Positions 1-6,970 of a DNA stretch of 6,970 nucleotides are shown here, piece by piece. The notes beneath the pieces were generated by a model. That model had not been told where the DNA came from. It was given only the letters and a program-made list of their open reading frames with translations, and searched no databases. The first letter of the stretch is position 1, and every line of letters starts with the position of its first letter. The stretch is from a virus (lineage: Duplodnaviria; Heunggongvirae; Uroviricota; Caudoviricetes), in the IMG/VR virus record IMGVR_UViG_2547132415_000017, positions 1-6,970 of that record. One strand, 5' to 3'. A program made the translations under genes and the position numbers.

Positions 1-1
1 G

Positions 2-2503
2 GTGGCGCGTAACGCGTCCGCGGTGGCACAGAACACGGCAGCCGCGAAGAAGTCAGCCGGCGATGCCAGCACATCAGCCCGTGAGGCGGCAACCCATGCG
101 ACTGATGCTGCAGGCTCAGCACGCGCAGCCAGCACGTCAGCCGGACAGGCCGCGTCGTCGGCTCAGTCAGCGTCTTCCAGCGCAGGAACGGCATCAGCAA
201 AGGCCACTGAAGCATCAAAAAGTGCTGCCGCTGCAGAGTCCTCAAAAAGCGCGGCGGCCACCAGTGCCGGTGCCGCGAAAACGTCTGAAACGAATGCTGC
301 AGCGTCACAACAATCAGCAGCCACTTCTGCATCCACCGCGACCACGAAAGCGTCAGAAGCTGCCACCTCAGCCCGGGATGCGTCGGCTTCAAAAGAGGCG
401 GCAAAATCATCAGAAACGAACGCATCATCAAGCGCCAGCAGCGCAGCTTCCTCGGCAACGGCGGCAGCAAATTCTGCGAAGGCGGCAAAAACGTCCGAGA
501 CGAACGTTAAGTCTTCTGAAACGGCAGCGGGACAGAGTGCCTCAGCTGCGGCAGGCTCAAAAACAGCGGCTGCATCATCTGCCAGTGCCGCGTCAACAAG
601 TGCCGGGCAGGCCTCAGCCAGTGCCACTGCCGCCGGAAAATCGGCAGAAAGCGCTGCATTGTCCGCTTCAACAGCCACAACGAAGGCTGGCGAAGCCGCT
701 GAACAGGCCAGCGCAGCAGCGAGGTCAGCTTCCGCAGCGAAGACATCCGAAACGAACGCGAAAGCGTCGGAAACCAGCGCAGAATCCTCAAAAACGGCTG
801 CCGCATCGTCAGCCAGTTCGGCGTCGTCATCGGCCTCATCGGCGTCTGCTTCAAAAGATGAGGCGACCAGACAAGCGTCAGCAGCGAAGGGCAGCGCCAC
901 GACGGCATCCACGAAGGCAACAGAGGCTGCTGGCAGTGCGACGGCGGCATCTCAGAGCAAAGTTGCTGCTGAATCCGCGGCAACGCGTGCCGAAACAGCG
1001 GCAAAACGGGCAGAGGATATTGCTGATGCCGTATCTCTGGAAGATGCGAGTACGACGAAAAAAGGTGTGGTTCAGCTCAGTAGCGCCACTAACAGCCCGT
1101 CTGAAACGCTGGCTGCGACACCAAAAGCGGTTAAGGCGGTAATGGATGAAACGAACAAGAAAGCGCCCTTAAATAGTCCTGCACTGACCGGAACGCCAAC
1201 AACGCCAACTGCGCCAAAAGGTACTAATAATACTCAGATCGCAAGTACGGCTTATGTGATGGCCGCGATTGCCGCCCTTGTAGACTCGTCGCCTGACGCA
1301 CTGAATACGCTGAACGAGTTAGCGGCGGCGCTGGGCAACGACCCGAATTTTGCGACCACCATGACTAACGCGCTTGCGGGTAAGCAACCGAAAGATGCCA
1401 CCCTGACGGCGCTGGCCGGGCTTGCTACTGCGGCAGACAGGTTTCCGTATTTTACGGGGAATGATGTCGCCAGCCTGGCAACCCTGACAAAAGTCGGGCG
1501 GGATATTCTTGCGAAATCGACCGTTGCTGCCGTTATCGAATACCTCGGTTTACAGGAAACGGTAAATCAGGCTTCTGGCGCATTACAGAAAAACCAGAAC
1601 GGCGCAGATATTCCGGGAAAAGATACCTTCACCAAAAACATTGGTGCCTGCCGCGCATATAGCGCATGGCTGAATATTGGTGGCGATAGTCAGGTCTGGA
1701 CAACTGCGCAATTTATTTCGTGGCTGGAGAGTCAGGGGGCATTTAACCATCCTTACTGGATGTGCAAAGGCTCATGGGCTTATGCAAATAATAAGGTTAT
1801 TACAGATACAGGTTGCGGAAATATTTGTCTTGCAGGTGCTGTGGTGGAAGTTATTGGCACTCGCGGCGCAATGACCATACGCGTTACTACGCCGAGCACG
1901 TCCAGCGGTGGCGGAATTACTAACGCTCAATTCACTTATATTAATCATGGTGATGCTTACGCTCCTGGCTGGCGACGAGACTACAACACGAAAAACCAGC
2001 AGCCTGCATTTGCTTTAGGGCAAACAGGACGCAGGGTCGCAAATGATAAAGCTGTTGGCTGGAACTGGAATAGCGGTGTTTATGATGCAGATATCAGTGG
2101 TGCATCGACATTAATCCTCCACTTCAATATGAATGCGGGGAGTTGCCCTGCTGTACAGTTCCGCGTGAATTACAGGAACGGCGGTATTTTTTATCGTTCA
2201 GCGCGTGATGGTTATGGCTTTGAAGCTAACTGGTCAGAGTTTTACACCACAACACGCAAACCCTCTGCGGGGGATGTTGGTGCATATACGCAGGCAGAAT
2301 GTAACTCAAGGTTTATTACAGGTATTCGCCTTGGCGGTCTGTCATCTGTTCAGACATGGAAAGGCCCCGGCTGGTCTGACAGGTCAGGTTATGTCGTTAC
2401 GGGTTCAGTTAACGGAAACCGTGATGAATTAATTGATACAACTCAGGCAAGGCCAATTCAGTATTGCATTAATGGGACGTGGTATAACGCGGGGAGTATT
2501 TAA
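2..2503 (+). CDS. Phage side tail-fibre protein (Stf-like), 5'-partial; constant part 2..~1545, variable receptor-binding C-terminal cassette ~1546..2503
   Basis: ORF open from the window edge (833 codons). The N-terminal ~330 aa are Ala/Ser/Thr-rich with a recurring AAK(T/S)SETNA motif. A fibre-type segment follows (KKGVVQLSSATNSPSETLAATPKAVKAV...). The C-terminus ...RPIQYCINGTWYNAGSI parallels the C-terminus of the opposite-strand cassette (...FRPIQKYINGTWYNVVQV). The ORF crosses the left crossover site in frame (VIEYLGLQETVN). Stop TAA at 2501-2503. Confidence 0.9.
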   Translation: MARNASAVAQNTAAAKKSAGDASTSAREAATHATDAAGSARAASTSAGQAASSAQSASSSAGTASAKATEASKSAAAAESSKSAAATSAGAAKTSETNAAASQQSAATSASTATTKASEAATSARDASASKEAAKSSETNASSSASSAASSATAAANSAKAAKTSETNVKSSETAAGQSASAAAGSKTAAASSASAASTSAGQASASATAAGKSAESAALSASTATTKAGEAAEQASAAARSASAAKTSETNAKASETSAESSKTAAASSASSASSSASSASASKDEATRQASAAKGSATTASTKATEAAGSATAASQSKVAAESAATRAETAAKRAEDIADAVSLEDASTTKKGVVQLSSATNSPSETLAATPKAVKAVMDETNKKAPLNSPALTGTPTTPTAPKGTNNTQIASTAYVMAAIAALVDSSPDALNTLNELAAALGNDPNFATTMTNALAGKQPKDATLTALAGLATAADRFPYFTGNDVASLATLTKVGRDILAKSTVAAVIEYLGLQETVNQASGALQKNQNGADIPGKDTFTKNIGACRAYSAWLNIGGDSQVWTTAQFISWLESQGAFNHPYWMCKGSWAYANNKVITDTGCGNICLAGAVVEVIGTRGAMTIRVTTPSTSSGGGITNAQFTYINHGDAYAPGWRRDYNTKNQQPAFALGQTGRRVANDKAVGWNWNSGVYDADISGASTLILHFNMNAGSCPAVQFRVNYRNGGIFYRSARDGYGFEANWSEFYTTTRKPSAGDVGAYTQAECNSRFITGIRLGGLSSVQTWKGPGWSDRSGYVVTGSVNGNRDELIDTTQARPIQYCINGTWYNAGSI
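1533..1566. repeat. Left inversion crossover site (gix/pix/hix-like), embedded in frame in the tail-fibre ORF
   Basis: ttatcgaatacctcggtttacaggaaacggtaaa; its reverse complement matches 4578-4611 at 32 of 34 positions. The 26-bp core TTATCGAATACCTCGGTTTACAGGAA resembles serine-invertase crossover sites as I recall them. Central dinucleotide TC here versus GA at the right site. Confidence 0.85.
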
Positions 2504-2505
2504 CG

Positions 2506-3039
2506 ATGATGCACTTAAAAAACATTACTGCTGGCAACCCTAAAACAAAAGAGCAATACCAGCTAACAAAGCAATTTAACATCAAATGGCTTTATTCAGA
2601 TGATGGAAAAAACTGGTATGAGGAACAAAAGAATTTCCAGCTAGACACTTTGAAAATGGTCTATGACCATAACGGCGTTATTATTTGTATTGAAAAGGAT
2701 GTTTCAGCAATTAATCCAGAGGGTGCAAGCGTCGTTGAATTACCTGATATTACAGCAAATCGCCGGGCTGATATTTCGGGGAAATGGATGTTCAAAGATG
2801 GCGTAGTGATAAAGCGAACTTATACCGAGGAAGAGCAGAGGCAACAAGCGGAAAATGAAAAGCAAAGCCTGTTGCAACTTGTCAGGGATAAAACCCAGCT
2901 ATGGGACTCACAGCTACGGCTGGGCATCATTTCCGACGAGAATAAACAAAAATTAACCGAGTGGATGCTCTATGCGCAGAAAGTCGAATCTACAGACACT
3001 TCCGGCCTGCCAGTAACGTTTCCCGAACAACCAGAATGA
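2506..3039 (+). CDS. Tail-fibre assembly protein (Tfa family), cognate to the expressed fibre cassette
   Basis: 177-aa ORF with ATG 2 nt after the fibre stop (TAACGATG) and GGGGAG 9-14 nt upstream. The N-terminal ~110 aa are closely similar to the opposite-strand paralogue ([22 protein letters not shown]...DGKNWYEE...PDITANR...SGKWMF), with divergent C-termini. Stop TGA at 3037-3039. Confidence 0.88.
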   Translation: MMHLKNITAGNPKTKEQYQLTKQFNIKWLYSDDGKNWYEEQKNFQLDTLKMVYDHNGVIICIEKDVSAINPEGASVVELPDITANRRADISGKWMFKDGVVIKRTYTEEEQRQQAENEKQSLLQLVRDKTQLWDSQLRLGIISDENKQKLTEWMLYAQKVESTDTSGLPVTFPEQPE

Positions 3040-3043
3040 GAGA

Positions 3044-3061
3044 AGGCCCGCTATCGGGCCT
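3044..3061. terminator. Bidirectional hairpin between the convergent tail-fibre assembly genes
   Basis: AGGCCCG-ctat-CGGGCCT (7-bp GC-rich stem, 4-nt loop), followed by TTAATTTTT on the plus strand and flanked by T-rich sequence on the minus strand. Sits in the 28-bp gap between the stops of the two Tfa genes. Confidence 0.6.
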
Positions 3062-3067
3062 TAATTT

Positions 3068-3595
3068 TTACTCTGGTTTTTGTGGCCATTCAGGATTTGC
3101 CGTATCCACACGGCTGACCAGAACACTGTAGCGTTCCCATGCTTCCAGTCGTGTGCGTTCCTCGTCTGTTGCCATATTCAGCCTGACAGCGCGTTCCAGC
3201 GGTTGGATGACTGATTCAGCTTCGGAAAGCAATGCGGCCTTTTGTGATTCGGCCTGTTGTTGTTGCTCGTCTGCCGTATAAATCCGTTTAACCACAGCTC
3301 CGTCCCTAAACATCCACTTACCGGAATCATCAGCGCAGCGGTTGGCTGTAATATCTGGAACCTCAACGACGCTATAACCTTCAGGGTTAAGCGTGGAGGC
3401 ATCTTTGGTGATGGCGACAATAATATTATTTGCATCGTAAACAATCTTTATTGTGTCTGGCTGAAAGTTTTTCACTTCCTCATACCAGTTTTTTCCGTCT
3501 TCGGACCATAACCAGATAACATCAAAATTCTTTGTTAGCTGATATTGTTCTTTTGTTTTTGGATTTCCAGACTTAATATTTTTTAAATGCTGCAT
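3068..3595 (-). CDS. Tail-fibre assembly protein (Tfa family), alternative copy for the silent cassette
   Basis: 175-aa ORF on the minus strand, paralogous to 2506..3039. Its ATG lies 3 nt after the stop of the upstream minus-strand fibre cassette, mirroring the plus-strand arrangement. Confidence 0.88.
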
Positions 3596-3598
3596 AAA

Positions 3599-4603
3599 TT
3601 ACACCTGTACGACGTTATACCATGTGCCATTGATGTATTTTTGTATTGGTCTGAATACTGCCGGATCATCGCCATCAACTGCACCGATAATGCCAAGCCC
3701 CGTAATTGCATGACCTGATTTCTCATACATCACGCCTTTTTGCATAGTCTGAACAACACGTGTACCAAGTCGGACATCTCTCACATAACGTGAGTCAAAA
3801 TTACCATAATTGCCGGGAATAACTTGCGCACCGCAAAGCCAGTTGCCATTGTTGTCCATGTACGCCTGACCATCGGTGCCATTGGCTGTCCTTGAGTTAT
3901 TAATCATGTAGATGCCAAATTGCTTATTCCCCAGTCCACCAATCATAAATTTGCGATCAGCGTGGTCCTGACGAAGTAATGCCTGCGCACCATCGGTGGA
4001 TACCGCATTGCGTCCCAAAATAACATTCTGGTCACGCATATGAATCCACATGCCGGTACTACTGTTAATTGCAAAACGGTTTGCAAATATATCCCCTGTA
4101 ACATCAAGACCATGCCCCATGCTTATCCGACCAGTTCTGAGATTAAGCGTAAAGGGGCGTAGTGGCCCTATATCACCATTTTCTCCCTCATTCTCTCGTG
4201 TAGGGATGATATGCAGGCATTCTTCAGAACGACGAAAAATAGCACCAAAAGATGAATTAAATATCCTCAGTGCATTGACTGTCGATATTTTTACTTCACT
4301 GCTGAAAAGGGCTTTAACAAGGACAGACAAAGCATCCCATTTAAGAGTCATCAGGTCTTTTGTTGTGGTGCTCTGGCGGCTTCTCCATTTGAAATATTCA
4401 TTGCCGTTGTCGCCTGTTTCAAACCACATGTATGAATCAGTGTCGCTGTCGGCATTATTTTTAAAACCAATCTTTGCCCAGTCAGTATTTCTAATCCAGG
4501 CAAGGATTGAGTCGTTTTCAAAAGTAAGCCCACCGGACAAGGTATCGCCATTCTTTTGCACGGCGTTCCTGGCCCTGTTTACCGTTTCCTGTAAACCGAG
4601 GTT
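3599..4603 (-). CDS. Silent alternative tail-fibre C-terminal cassette (Sv'-like); no own start or promoter, expressed only after inversion fuses it to the constant fibre region
   Basis: Minus-strand frame is open for about 334 codons from directly after an in-frame TAA (4604-4606) through the right crossover site (N-LGLQETVN-RARNAVQKNGDTLSGG...) to a stop at 3599-3601. The early sequence parallels the plus cassette (QETVNQASGALQKNQNG...). The C-terminus ...FRPIQKYINGTWYNVVQV parallels ...RPIQYCINGTWYNAGSI. The M at 4561 in the ORF track is a GTG and is probably not a real start. Confidence 0.8.
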   Translation of the reverse strand, partial: NLGLQETVNRARNAVQKNGDTLSGGLTFENDSILAWIRNTDWAKIGFKNNADSDTDSYMWFETGDNGNEYFKWRSRQSTTTKDLMTLKWDALSVLVKALFSSEVKISTVNALRIFNSSFGAIFRRSEECLHIIPTRENEGENGDIGPLRPFTLNLRTGRISMGHGLDVTGDIFANRFAINSSTGMWIHMRDQNVILGRNAVSTDGAQALLRQDHADRKFMIGGLGNKQFGIYMINNSRTANGTDGQAYMDNNGNWLCGAQVIPGNYGNFDSRYVRDVRLGTRVVQTMQKGVMYEKSGHAITGLGIIGAVDGDDPAVFRPIQKYINGTWYNVVQV

Positions 4604-4611
4604 TTAGATAA
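4578..4611. repeat. Right inversion crossover site (gix/pix/hix-like)
   Basis: tttaccgtttcctgtaaaccgaggttttagataa; core TTCCTGTAAACCGAGGTTTTAGATAA. Inverted copy of 1533-1566 with 2 mismatches. Lies about 55 bp upstream of the invertase start. Confidence 0.85.
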
Positions 4612-4665
4612 TGGCGGTTTCTGGCCTGCATGGCATGATTTGTGCTTTTGGACGGGAGATTCAGC

Positions 4666-4860
4666 GTGCTGATTGGCTATGTAAGGGTATCAACAAATGA
4701 CCAGAATACAGACCTGCAACGAAACGCTCTTGTTTGTGCAGGATGTGAACAAATATTTGAAGATAAATTAAGCGGAATAAGGACAGGCCGACCTGGATTA
4801 AAACGTGCTTTAAAGCGCCTTCAAAAAGGTGACGCACTGGTTGTCTGGAAACTGGACTGA
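4666..4860 (+). pseudogene. pin: Serine DNA invertase (Pin/Gin/Cin/Hin family), truncated: 64 intact N-terminal codons then TGA; a degenerate 3' remainder continues to about 4995
   Basis: GTG at 4666 preceded by GGGAGA (4654-4659). Product VLIGYVRVSTNDQNTDLQRNALVCAGCEQIFEDKLSGIRTGRPGLKRALKRLQKGDALVVWKLD matches the conserved invertase N-terminus, including the catalytic-serine motif YVRVSTNDQ. Stop TGA at 4858-4860 sits where intact invertases have Arg (WKLD-RLGRS...). The next in-frame codons ([12 protein letters not shown]) still weakly resemble LGRSMKHLISLV, after which no frame resembles an invertase. A full-length gene of about 190 codons would not fit before the convergent gene ending at 5066. 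Confidence 0.8.
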
Positions 4861-5003
4861 CTGGGTCACTGTATGCGGCATCTTGTCGTGCTGGTGGTGG
4901 AAGCCTGGAAGAAGTATCGGGTGTTGCTGAACCGTGTTAATACAACAACTGCACCGGATATTGAATGGCCAACAGGACCCATTATCGAATAGTGCATTAC
5001 GAA

Positions 5004-5036
5004 CTGCAGGATATTATATGGGATAATATTCTGCAG
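5004..5036. terminator. AT-rich palindromic hairpin between the invertase remnant and the 3' end of the GGDEF gene (possible bidirectional terminator)
   Basis: ctgcagGatattat-atggg-ataatattctgcag: 14-bp stem with one mismatch and a 5-nt loop, followed by TTTATTGGGGCTGTATTTT on the plus strand. Confidence 0.4.
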
Positions 5037-5065
5037 TTTATTGGGGCTGTATTTTAAAAAGGTGT

Positions 5066-6397
5066 TTATTTTGAGTGAGTTATCACCTTGTTTTTTCCGG
5101 TTCTTTTGGCTTGATATAACGCTTTATCGGCATTGACTAACATTTCAGATGGACTGAGATTATTCTCTTTTGAAGTAAAGCAACCAATACTGACAGTTAT
5201 TTTCTCAGGTCCATGCGATAATAATTTTTCCGAGCATTGCTCTTCAATGTTTTTTCTGATTCGCTCTGCAATTGATAGCAAGAGCTTTTGAGTATTACCT
5301 TTAATGATAATACCGAACTCCTCACCGCCTAAGCGCCCTAATATATCCTCTTTCCTGATGGATTTTTTTATTATTCTGGTAACCATTACTATGACTTGAT
5401 CACCCATATGATGCCCCCATTTGTCATTGATGCTTTTGAAATTGTCAATATCTAACATTATTACTGAGAAATCATGGTGTTTTGATATATTCTTCAATGA
5501 GTCAATAAAGTATCTTCTATTGTATGTATTCGTTAGTGGATCATGAATTGCCATATGATTAGCATGATTTAATTTCCTGAAAACATAATACATGAGTGTT
5601 GAAATGATATAAATCATTGATATCAATTCAAGAAATTTTGTCATGTACCATGCAGGATGGGATTTATCAATAAAATACAATAAAATTAGATTATTGCATA
5701 CTGACACTATACTAATAAGTATTATACACAACCATATTTTTGAGTAATTACGTATGCTGATGCATGAGCTGATAAGTAATACAAGCCAAAATACTGATAT
5801 TATTTTGGTGTACACGATATTCCACGTCGGCAAATGACGATTCAGCGAGTATTGTATAATATTAAGACTATATTTTATATTGTCACTGCTTAGATTTTTT
5901 GCTACAAACGGAGTAATAAAAAGAATTAATATTGACAAAACAACAATTATTATGTTTCTTTTATCTTCTAAAACACTTTTGTTTTTAACATTGGTGGAAT
6001 AAACAGCCAGAAAGATTATAGATATAAAGCTGAACTGACGGAATAGATAATATATTGCGATATCATTTGATTTCTGATAGATTGTAGATAAATCGTTACC
6101 TAACGGAGATAAAGAAATAATAGCCACTTCTAATAAATAATACGTGTTGCTCAAAAACGCGAATGAAAGAATTAAGAGATAACTTTGTCTCTGATTAGAA
6201 ACATAGTAAAGCAATAGAAAAATAAAAATCATCAGGTTTATGAAAAAAAGCCCAATAATGAAAACACTATAACTTATTTGTGTTGTTTGTGTTATGTATA
6301 TTCCATTATTTGCATGCAGTAACAAAAATATAATAGAGATGCATGAAAATAAAAAGATGAAGATTTTTATTTTTATAGGTACCTGGTTGATAATCAT
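5066..6397 (-). CDS. Membrane-anchored GGDEF-domain diguanylate cyclase: about 8 predicted TM helices (MASE-type sensor region, possibly YcdT/DgcT-like) plus a C-terminal GGDEF domain
   Basis: 443-aa ORF. The N-terminal ~275 aa are strongly hydrophobic, with about 8 stretches of 19-25 residues. The C-terminal domain has canonical GGDEF-domain motifs: DPLTNTYNRRYF, IMLDIDNFKSINDKWGHHMGDQVI, and RLGGEEFGII (GGEEF encoded at 5315-5329). An RxxD motif (RKED) sits 5 residues upstream of GGEEF. Also ADKALYQAKRTGKNKV. ATG at 6397-6395 with AGGTG 7-11 nt upstream. Very AT-rich. Family assignment of the N-terminal domain is from architecture only and is unverified. Confidence 0.88.
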   Translation of the reverse strand: MIINQVPIKIKIFIFLFSCISIIFLLLHANNGIYITQTTQISYSVFIIGLFFINLMIFIFLLLYYVSNQRQSYLLILSFAFLSNTYYLLEVAIISLSPLGNDLSTIYQKSNDIAIYYLFRQFSFISIIFLAVYSTNVKNKSVLEDKRNIIIVVLSILILFITPFVAKNLSSDNIKYSLNIIQYSLNRHLPTWNIVYTKIISVFWLVLLISSCISIRNYSKIWLCIILISIVSVCNNLILLYFIDKSHPAWYMTKFLELISMIYIISTLMYYVFRKLNHANHMAIHDPLTNTYNRRYFIDSLKNISKHHDFSVIMLDIDNFKSINDKWGHHMGDQVIVMVTRIIKKSIRKEDILGRLGGEEFGIIIKGNTQKLLLSIAERIRKNIEEQCSEKLLSHGPEKITVSIGCFTSKENNLSPSEMLVNADKALYQAKRTGKNKVITHSK

Positions 6398-6655
6398 GTA
6401 CGCACCTGAGAATGATATATATATAATATGTATCGCTACAAATAACGATAATTTCTTACTGGTGATAGTATACTATTATTCTGGTTAATCGCTGTCAAAT
6501 TGATGATTTTGGTTAGTATTGCAATAGCGAAGAGTTTGATCCGGTAAGACTGGCTAGGCAAGGCTATACCAAAAAATCAGTGTAGGTTCAGAAAATGATG
6601 CACCATACAATCATCAATAATTTCAAATTGTCCATTGTGCATAAATCATAAAGAA

Positions 6656-6692
6656 AACCGCAGCACGTCGTATGCAAGAACGTGCTGCGGTT
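6656..6692 (-). terminator. Rho-independent-type terminator hairpin oriented for minus-strand transcription
   Basis: Perfect 12-bp stem aaccgcagcacg / cgtgctgcggtt (6656-6667 and 6681-6692) with a 13-nt loop. On the minus strand it is followed by TTTCTTTATGATTTAT; on the plus strand the following sequence is not T-rich. Confidence 0.5.
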
Positions 6693-6878
6693 GGCTGGTG
6701 AACTTTCGATAGTGCGAGTATTGAATGATTTCCAGCTGTTGCCGATTTTACTATGTTTTCAGTAGAACACTTAGACAAAACTGAGGCACACAAATCTTTG
6801 CACTGGATTGCAAGGCTTTGTGCTTCTCTGGAGTGCGACATGTTTGATAACAAAAAATTAGCGCAAGAAGACAAAAAT

Positions 6879-6970
6879 TAGACTGGCCCCCTGAATCTCC
6901 AGACAACCAATATCACTTAAATAAGTGATAGTCTTAATACTAGTTTTTAGACTAGTCATTGGAGAGCAGA
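6879..6970 (+). mobile_element. IS2 insertion sequence, left terminal inverted repeat and leader (partial; continues beyond the window)
   Basis: TAGACTGGCCCCCTGAATCTCCAGACAACCAATATCACTTAAATAAGTGATAGTCTTAATACTAGTTTTTAGACTAGTCATTGGAGA... matches the IS2 left end as I recall it, the region just upstream of the transposase orfA start. Recognised from memory, not by search. Confidence 0.8.

Follow-up and report, generated by a model that had tools for sequence, protein, structure and literature searches.

Both orientations of a tail-fibre switch occur beside the same truncated Gin-type invertase in lambdoid prophages of Escherichia coli

The window, i.e., the whole 6,970-nt stretch analysed here (positions 1 to 6,970 of IMG/VR record IMGVR_UViG_2547132415_000017), is the right end of a lambdoid prophage, which close relatives carry at att-lambda beside ybhB and bioA. 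Its main element is an invertible segment of the side tail fibre gene stf, which offers two alternative fibre ends with their chaperones and lies next to the remnant of an invertase gene. The constant N-terminal part of stf enters the window from the left edge (2..1532, plus strand, within an open reading frame [ORF] at 2..2503) and is joined to the fibre C-terminal cassette A (1559..2503, plus strand), which is thus in the expressed orientation here. Cassette A is followed by tfaA (2506..3039, plus strand), encoding its assembly chaperone of 177 amino acids (aa; Pfam Caudo_TAP, E = 1.7e-35), and by a GC-rich hairpin with a T-run (3043..3062, plus strand), which lies between the convergent tfa genes and is terminator-like by consensus match only. 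The opposite strand carries the alternative pair in silent orientation: the fibre C-terminal cassette B (3599..4585, minus strand; Pfam Gp34_trimer, E = 5e-11) and the gene for its 175-aa chaperone, tfaB or Tfa′ (3068..3595, minus strand; Pfam Caudo_TAP, E = 7e-38). The frame of cassette B is open through the inner half of the adjacent crossover site to position 4603, i.e., over 334 codons, and ends with a stop at 3599-3601; tfaB starts 3 nt past this stop, and it is the gene that comes after the expressed fibre gene in relatives with the flipped segment. In random sequence of the same composition, 334 stop-free codons would arise with a chance of ∼8e-10 and 175 codons with one of ∼2e-5. Because of these low probabilities and the Pfam matches, cassette B and tfaB are real genes, not chance ORFs. 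The initial annotation of this DNA had described both frames as free of stops and frameshifts, and its codon counts of 334 and 175 proved exact.

Two 26-bp gix-type sites, arranged as inverted repeats, delimit the segment. The left site (TTATCGAATACC-TC-GGTTTACAGGAA; 1533..1558, plus strand) lies within the stf frame, and the right site (4586..4611, minus strand) reads TTATCTAAAACC-TC-GGTTTACAGGAA in reverse complement. They agree at 24 of 26 positions and have a common central TC/GA dinucleotide. The left site is identical to Phi4_5prime of strain EC958, and the outer half of the right site matches Phi4_3prime (Table 3 of PMC4134206). This outer half also holds an in-frame TAA directly upstream of cassette B, which bars read-in. 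The invertible segment between the two central dinucleotides measures 3,053 bp (1546..4598), and in silico inversion of exactly these positions makes flipped relatives near-identical to relatives in the orientation of the window. Relatives in either orientation encode an intact Stf ORF, of 945 aa in the window orientation and 959 aa in the flipped one, each followed by its own tfa gene. The Prokaryotic Genome Annotation Pipeline (PGAP) labels the flipped stf (loci L007, L008, and L010 to L012) as incomplete with a missing C-terminus, or splits the gene. Decay of cassette B when expressed, which these "incomplete" notes could have meant, was rejected, since direct translation yields the intact 959-aa ORF and the label is thus an annotation artefact. 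Inverted sites, a crossover point inside a fibre ORF with alternative C-termini and chaperones, and precise inversion in relatives are all features of the Din family; the feature missing here is an adjacent working serine invertase with a catalytic domain and a C-terminal helix-turn-helix (HTH). The segment therefore behaves like a Din system yet is not self-sufficient, because the adjacent invertase gene breaks off with a stop after 64 Resolvase N-domain codons and is fused beyond it to part of a tfa gene.

Specifically, this gene, pin′ (4666..4860, plus strand), is what remains of a Gin-type serine invertase gene, namely 64 codons closed by a TGA, with a Pfam match to the Resolvase N-domain only. 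It starts with GTG at 4666 (an alternative GTG lies upstream at 4642), and its TGA at 4858-4860 aligns with a CGC (Arg) codon of intact Gin. A PinE-like remnant of ∼11 codons and a tfa tail follow (4861..4992, plus strand; a tfa fragment according to PGAP in relatives), the fusion at about 4890-4905 leading into the ∼33 codons that close a tfa gene (4894-4992). The invertase is dead, as the initial annotation had stated, and lacks the C-terminal domain that would bind DNA. The first 195 nt of this stub are 97% identical to the intact gin gene (193 aa) of a Mu-like prophage in E. coli W, including 113 identical nucleotides at positions 4665-4777. Taken as a whole, the stretch 4665-4905 is a mosaic that is gin-identical up to 4777, ∼97% identical up to 4857, and then abruptly ∼55 to 60% identical and PinE-like. 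Further lesions of the stub are found in relatives, namely Q29* together with TGA65>TGG in strain 2018-02-2CC and W61* in JJ1886.

The retained 5′ end of pin′ may still serve in cis. A motif scan predicted a Fis-binding recombinational enhancer at 4687..4750 (no strand assigned), made up of two G-N13-C motifs (4687-4701 and 4736-4750) whose centres are 49 bp apart and the nearer of which lies ∼96 bp from the crossover centre. Work by Kahmann and by Johnson and Simon, both in 1985, reportedly placed the gin, cin, and hin enhancers inside the 5′ ends of these invertase genes. In the native Hin enhancer, the distance from hixL to the proximal Fis site is ∼100 bp (PMC3798978). The geometry of the candidate Fis sites matches that of the native Hin enhancer and suggests enhancer function. 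With this putative enhancer counted in, the cis requirements for inversion appear complete.

Junction probes were used to search 5,426 complete E. coli genomes for both orientations of the segment, the flipped-junction probe being a synthetic sequence of reversed cassette A followed by pin′, the tfa fragment, and the flank of the downstream diguanylate cyclase gene. The window-orientation junction occurred in 92 genomes and the flipped junction, beside the same stub, in 55 (coverage of at least 80%), with six of the latter 100.0% identical to the probe over 962 nt. Two pairs of loci are particularly close. EC20-4B-2 (window orientation) and PK8566 (flipped) show 2 differences over 12,962 nt after in silico inversion, and both carry a common prophage remnant with a terminase fragment, nohD, ynfO, a DUF1398 gene, and stf without its N-terminus, the tail genes being deleted. 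TUM9868 and 1217KP, both at the Rac site, show 5 differences over 11,900 nt after the flip, with 0 inside the segment. In every flipped locus fetched, the outer half-sites stay put and the inner half-sites move. These comparisons show at least two independent inversions after the truncation of the invertase, one of them even after decapitation of the fibre gene. Close pairs of this kind also contradict a sorting of flipped and unflipped loci into two deeply divided clades. The segment is thus not locked, because near-identical loci with the same dead stub show both orientations; the assumption of the initial annotation that loss of the invertase had locked the cassette, which should then decay, does not hold for this module, the copies of which are also too young for decay to be expected. 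Strains assembled twice were looked for as well, and T28R and 2018-02-2CC, the duplicates that turned up, each have the same orientation in both assemblies. The Rac-site prophage (loci L002 and L012) carries an invertible fibre segment beside pinR, for which both orientations were also seen. A recent paper, whose probes were the rac and Qin sequences of K-12, had reported inversions for e14 alone.

A stub carrier count of 734 (at least 80% coverage) was rejected as inflated, given that intact gin matches exactly 80% of the query. With 27 of 40 evenly spaced rows spanning the fusion, the carriers were put at ∼530 records; the four junction-specific searches, including those for the two orientations of the sister prophage described below, gave 92 + 55 + 373 + 144 = 664. 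Roughly one in ten complete E. coli genomes holds this lineage of stub-bearing lambdoid prophages.

The sister prophage is that of the sequence type 131 (ST131) strains JJ1886 and EC958, known in the latter as Phi4. JJ1886 carries it beside the trp operon, with the identical stub stop and fusion point and with different cassettes. Its pin′ region is 96.4% identical to that of the window over 362 nt, or 98.0% if compared over the junction probe of 246 nt. The silent genes of this prophage, a cassette and a Tfa′, are intact too. The ST131-type junctions were found in 373 genomes in one orientation versus 144 in the other. The Swedish isolates 4/0 (urinary infection) and 4/1-1 (faeces) show 0 differences over 12,900 nt after the flip. 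Because the ST131 sites differ from each other in both half-sites, the exchange between these two isolates could be narrowed to ∼13 bp around the central dinucleotide, with the inner half-sites swapped. Such a pattern is indicative of a site-specific exchange, not of homologous recombination. Forde et al. (2014; PMC4134206) had listed the same 26-bp sites for EC958 Phi4 and described its truncated invertase without an HTH domain. They also recovered an alternative-orientation Phi4 contig from PacBio reads of a single DNA preparation, estimated that ∼50% of the reads were inverted for the Phi1 segment, and concluded that another enzyme acts in trans on Phi4, perhaps the Phi1 invertase (PMC4134206). 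Phi4 shares with the window the stub fused to the same piece of tfa, the central TC and the outer half-sites (TTATCGAATACC and TTATCTAAAACC) of the crossover sites, a segment of ∼3.1 kb with the stf-tfa / tfa′-stf′ layout, and the occurrence of both orientations in nature. It differs in its variable cassettes, which are 76 to 83% identical or unalignable; in its position beside the trp operon, whereas the window type is at att-lambda next to ybhB/bio; and in the gene after the stub, a methyltransferase in Phi4 versus a MASE4-GGDEF cyclase in the window. Moreover, Phi4 inversion is backed by reads, whereas the window's own strain is known from assembled sequence alone. Trans inversion of this stub-bearing module is already published for Phi4. 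The window adds one more member, which differs from Phi4 in its cassettes and in where it is integrated.

Potential sources of the enzyme were sought in the carriers of the module with a composite probe that combined the cyclase gene with the invertase 3′ halves absent from the stub, counting the extra matching places per carrier. These are counts of chromosomal matches, gene intactness aside. A Gin/PinE-type 3′ half was found elsewhere in 39 of 60 carrier chromosomes and a pinR/Q-type gene in 44, so that 54 of the 60 hold at least one further match of either type. PK8566 and EC20-4B-2, one of the two pairs in opposite orientations described above, have the pinR/Q type only. PinR is 36% identical to Gin, and experiments have shown that the P segment of e14 is inverted in trans by PinQ and PinR (PMC12529663). 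In Rac-site relatives an intact pinR lies ∼100 bp past the tfa fragment, at the place that the cyclase gene takes in the window; the search for a cognate invertase beside the window locus led to this cyclase gene.

The module is young. Cassette B (987 nt) is 100% identical in all 14 fetched loci holding any part of it (13 at full length), and the whole 3,053-nt segment shows 11 polymorphic sites among 11 sequences, the copies being ∼99.9% identical. Eight of these single-nucleotide polymorphisms (SNPs) are nonsynonymous and 3 synonymous, with none in cassette B. We discarded the ratio of nonsynonymous to synonymous substitution rates (dN/dS) within the truncated-invertase cluster as a test of selection, as 11 SNPs only, and zero in cassette B, give it no power. 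The 8:3 ratio could reflect relaxed constraint or the surplus of nonsynonymous variants that is usual at a young age. As to neutral survival, 4.0% of the possible substitutions in the cassette B and tfaB ORFs create stops; assuming an indel-to-substitution ratio of 0.1 to 0.2, the probability that both ORFs stay intact without selection is about 0.7 to 0.9 at a divergence of at most 0.1% per lineage and <0.12 at 1%. Decay is not yet expected because the copies of the module differ by only ∼0.1%. Against the Mu-like orthologues, dN/dS ranges from 0.05 to 0.23 over all four ORFs (cassette A, 0.095; tfaA, 0.052; tfaB, 0.079). All four thus evolved under constraint in the past, and this constraint is not datable to after the truncation, because the Mu-like comparison mixes in time spent in functional phages. 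The comparison of substitution patterns with orthologues that the initial annotation had put forward speaks for past constraint and is no guide to constraint since the cluster arose.

Decay is nevertheless seen in some copies. The silent tfaA of YSP8-1 carries a frameshift, and truncations by the insertion sequence IS1 or by deletion occur in ET474, strain 1409, and three genomes of the enterotoxigenic E. coli (ETEC) O6:H16 type. In the latter (loci L013 to L015), a deletion has taken out cassette A, tfaA, and the left site, so that part of a J gene now runs straight into mid-tfaB. These three copies are truly locked, because the left crossover site is gone. Their cassette B is still 100% identical to that of the window.

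We propose, with a probability of roughly 0.85, that the locus is an orphan host-range switch of the Mu G-segment type in a lambdoid stf gene, which is flipped in trans and whose genes are intact through expression in the flipped state and through youth. The constant Stf N-terminus would join cassette A and TfaA or, after inversion of the 3,053 bp, cassette B and TfaB. While the adjacent invertase is dead, the cis-acting parts would be kept, namely the two gix sites with matching dinucleotides and a presumed Fis enhancer. Serine invertases from elsewhere in the genome, either of the Gin/PinE type (other prophages) or of the PinR/PinQ type, would carry out the inversion, any of them being a candidate for the acting enzyme. 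About one in three module-carrying genomes has cassette B, "silent" in the window, as its expressed fibre end. Youth would do the rest, as at ∼0.1% divergence both ORFs most likely stay intact even without selection. That a trans-acting invertase keeps the inversion going was one of the options raised by the initial annotation, and the orientation polymorphism among near-identical loci supports it strongly, in agreement with the published account of Phi4 (PMC4134206).

Youth could also account for the intact genes alone, if the segment had been locked since the death of the invertase and neutral decay had had too little time to produce a stop or frameshift. The ∼99.9% identity of the copies, a cassette B free of substitutions in 14 loci, and the neutral chance of 0.7 to 0.9 of staying intact all fit such a course, as do the YSP8-1 frameshift and the truncations by IS1 or deletion, counted in six loci. 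The 8:3 ratio is likewise enriched in nonsynonymous changes relative to the Mu-like divergence of cassette A, tfaA, and tfaB (Fisher p = 0.002), an enrichment that is not significant once cassette B is included (p = 0.12). Locking itself, however, is contradicted by the same stub standing beside both orientations in loci that differ by 0 to 5 nt over 12 to 13 kb. Furthermore, the truncation is common to the diverged ST131 prophage, which has intact silent genes, and so is not itself recent. We therefore hold recency on its own to be improbable, although its youth argument survives within the proposed trans-flipped switch. The idea of a recently lost invertase, also raised by the initial annotation, thus stands in part: the truncation is widespread and shared with diverged prophages, but the present cassette set is too young for neutral decay.

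Two further accounts fare worse. Cassette B and Tfa′ might be expressed in place from the minus strand and be selected for another role, e.g., receptor blocking of the StfE2 kind. Tfa′ has its own ATG with an AGGTG motif 8 nt upstream, and a chimeric e14 fibre fragment has a defence role after inversion (PMC12529663); that precedent, however, needs inversion and not expression in the silent state. The TAA directly upstream of the cassette B frame and the lack of a start codon at the crossover site also argue against in-place expression, as do the promoter-like matches on the minus strand, of which there are just two weak ones, fewer than the 4.3 ± 2.0 in shuffled sequences, and the lack of an excess of synonymous over nonsynonymous changes within the cluster. 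Independent expression, the last of the options in the initial annotation, is accordingly very improbable. Slightly less probable still is that the 38-bp inverted repeats recombine homologously through RecA and so flip the segment, with no site-specific invertase involved. The arms of the window-type loci share 24 identical inner bases, and those loci alone do not place the crossover more narrowly. Efficient RecA recombination needs ∼25 bp, however, and the ST131 exchange fell within ∼13 bp centred on the 2-bp core; nor did the outer half-sites move in any flipped locus. The Phi4 contig from a single preparation and the ∼50% inverted Phi1 reads (PMC4134206) are, in addition, far above the rates of homologous recombination for such short repeats.

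Several observations weigh against the trans-flipped switch that we propose. The 8:3 ratio of nonsynonymous to synonymous SNPs shows no trace of purifying selection after the cluster had formed, and the segment has flipped in several carriers whose fibre gene lacks its N-terminus, so that flipping may be incidental and not maintained for function. In 6 of the 60 carrier chromosomes (plasmids left out), no Gin/PinE- or PinR/Q-type gene was detectable, and some copies may thus be frozen for now; 74-2, ET474, and PSJ-14 are examples of carriers without a chromosomal invertase. The invertase places counted in the others are uninspected sequences, some of them possibly pseudogenes. The enhancer assignment consists of gin identity plus a loose motif. 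Finally, the evidence for inversion was drawn from the loci of other carriers and not from the genome of the window itself, in which the segment may still flip.

A bolder version of the proposal takes the stub for a retained cis-acting enhancer module, perhaps with a promoter too, rather than debris: the lineage would have dropped its own invertase, and the first ∼200 bp of the invertase gene would have been kept since they carry the putative Fis enhancer. The switch would then free-ride on invertases of co-resident prophages, such as those of the Gin/PinE or PinR/Q type. We regard this version as speculative and rather unlikely.

Among known systems, the Mu G segment has the same layout, with Sc-Sv-U / U′-Sv′ and an invertase gene that reads away from the right site. 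The gix sites of the comparator, the Mu-like prophage of E. coli W, differ from those of the window by 1 to 2 bases, and it holds orthologues of all four ORFs (cassette A, 95.3% identical; tfaA, 93.8%; tfaB, 91.0%; cassette B, 79.2%), the match of cassette A being the silent-orientation cassette of its G segment. The two differ in the constant part, a lambdoid side tail fibre in the window versus S in Mu, and in the invertase, which is cut after codon 64 in the window, making an enzyme of its own impossible, whereas the comparator has an intact gin. Like the prophage of the window, the cryptic E. coli prophage e14 has a fibre/chaperone segment that can invert, the P segment; it is flipped by the invertase of another prophage, and both of its orientations are common in sequenced genomes. 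Unlike the window, e14 keeps an intact cognate pinE, and its segment is 1.8 kb long with different sites (central TT/AA), as compared to 3,053 bp and TC/GA. The StfE2 defence phenotype was shown for e14, whereas none is known for the module of the window.

Past the tfa fragment, the window carries the MASE4-GGDEF diguanylate cyclase gene (5066..6397, minus strand). It has a low GC content (∼28 to 30%) and sits at the prophage end, where pinR-ydfK fill the same position in Rac-site relatives; it looks like a moron that displaced the neighbouring recombinase gene. The last ∼92 nt of the window (6879-6970) diverge from nearly all relatives and resemble the terminal inverted repeat of the insertion sequence IS2; strain YJ6, in which an IS2 transposase is annotated there, is the only relative matching through the window end. 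Where the window departs from its closest relatives, it does so almost wholly within 59-751, in the repetitive, Ala/Ser/Thr-rich part of the Stf N-terminus, and strain fS58a shows just two differences across 752-6878. In strains like fS58a the tail module is complete. The window has Leu46 in TfaA (position 2642) where 10 of 10 compared loci have Pro, and Asp808 in Stf (position 2424) where 5 of 10 have Ala. Both of these nonsynonymous differences fall in currently expressed genes.

Collectively, the apparent paradox of intact silent genes beside a dead invertase dissolves. A truncated invertase next to a fibre switch does not equal a locked switch, the orientation seen in an assembly is a snapshot, and the label "incomplete" that annotation pipelines put on the flipped fibre gene is wrong. 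Beyond such housekeeping, the finding matters little. Should the stub turn out to be an enhancer kept by selection, it would offer a neat case of a prophage relying on the recombinase of another. Flipping, and possibly a defence effect of the PinQ/StfE2 kind, would in that event depend on the other prophages of the cell.

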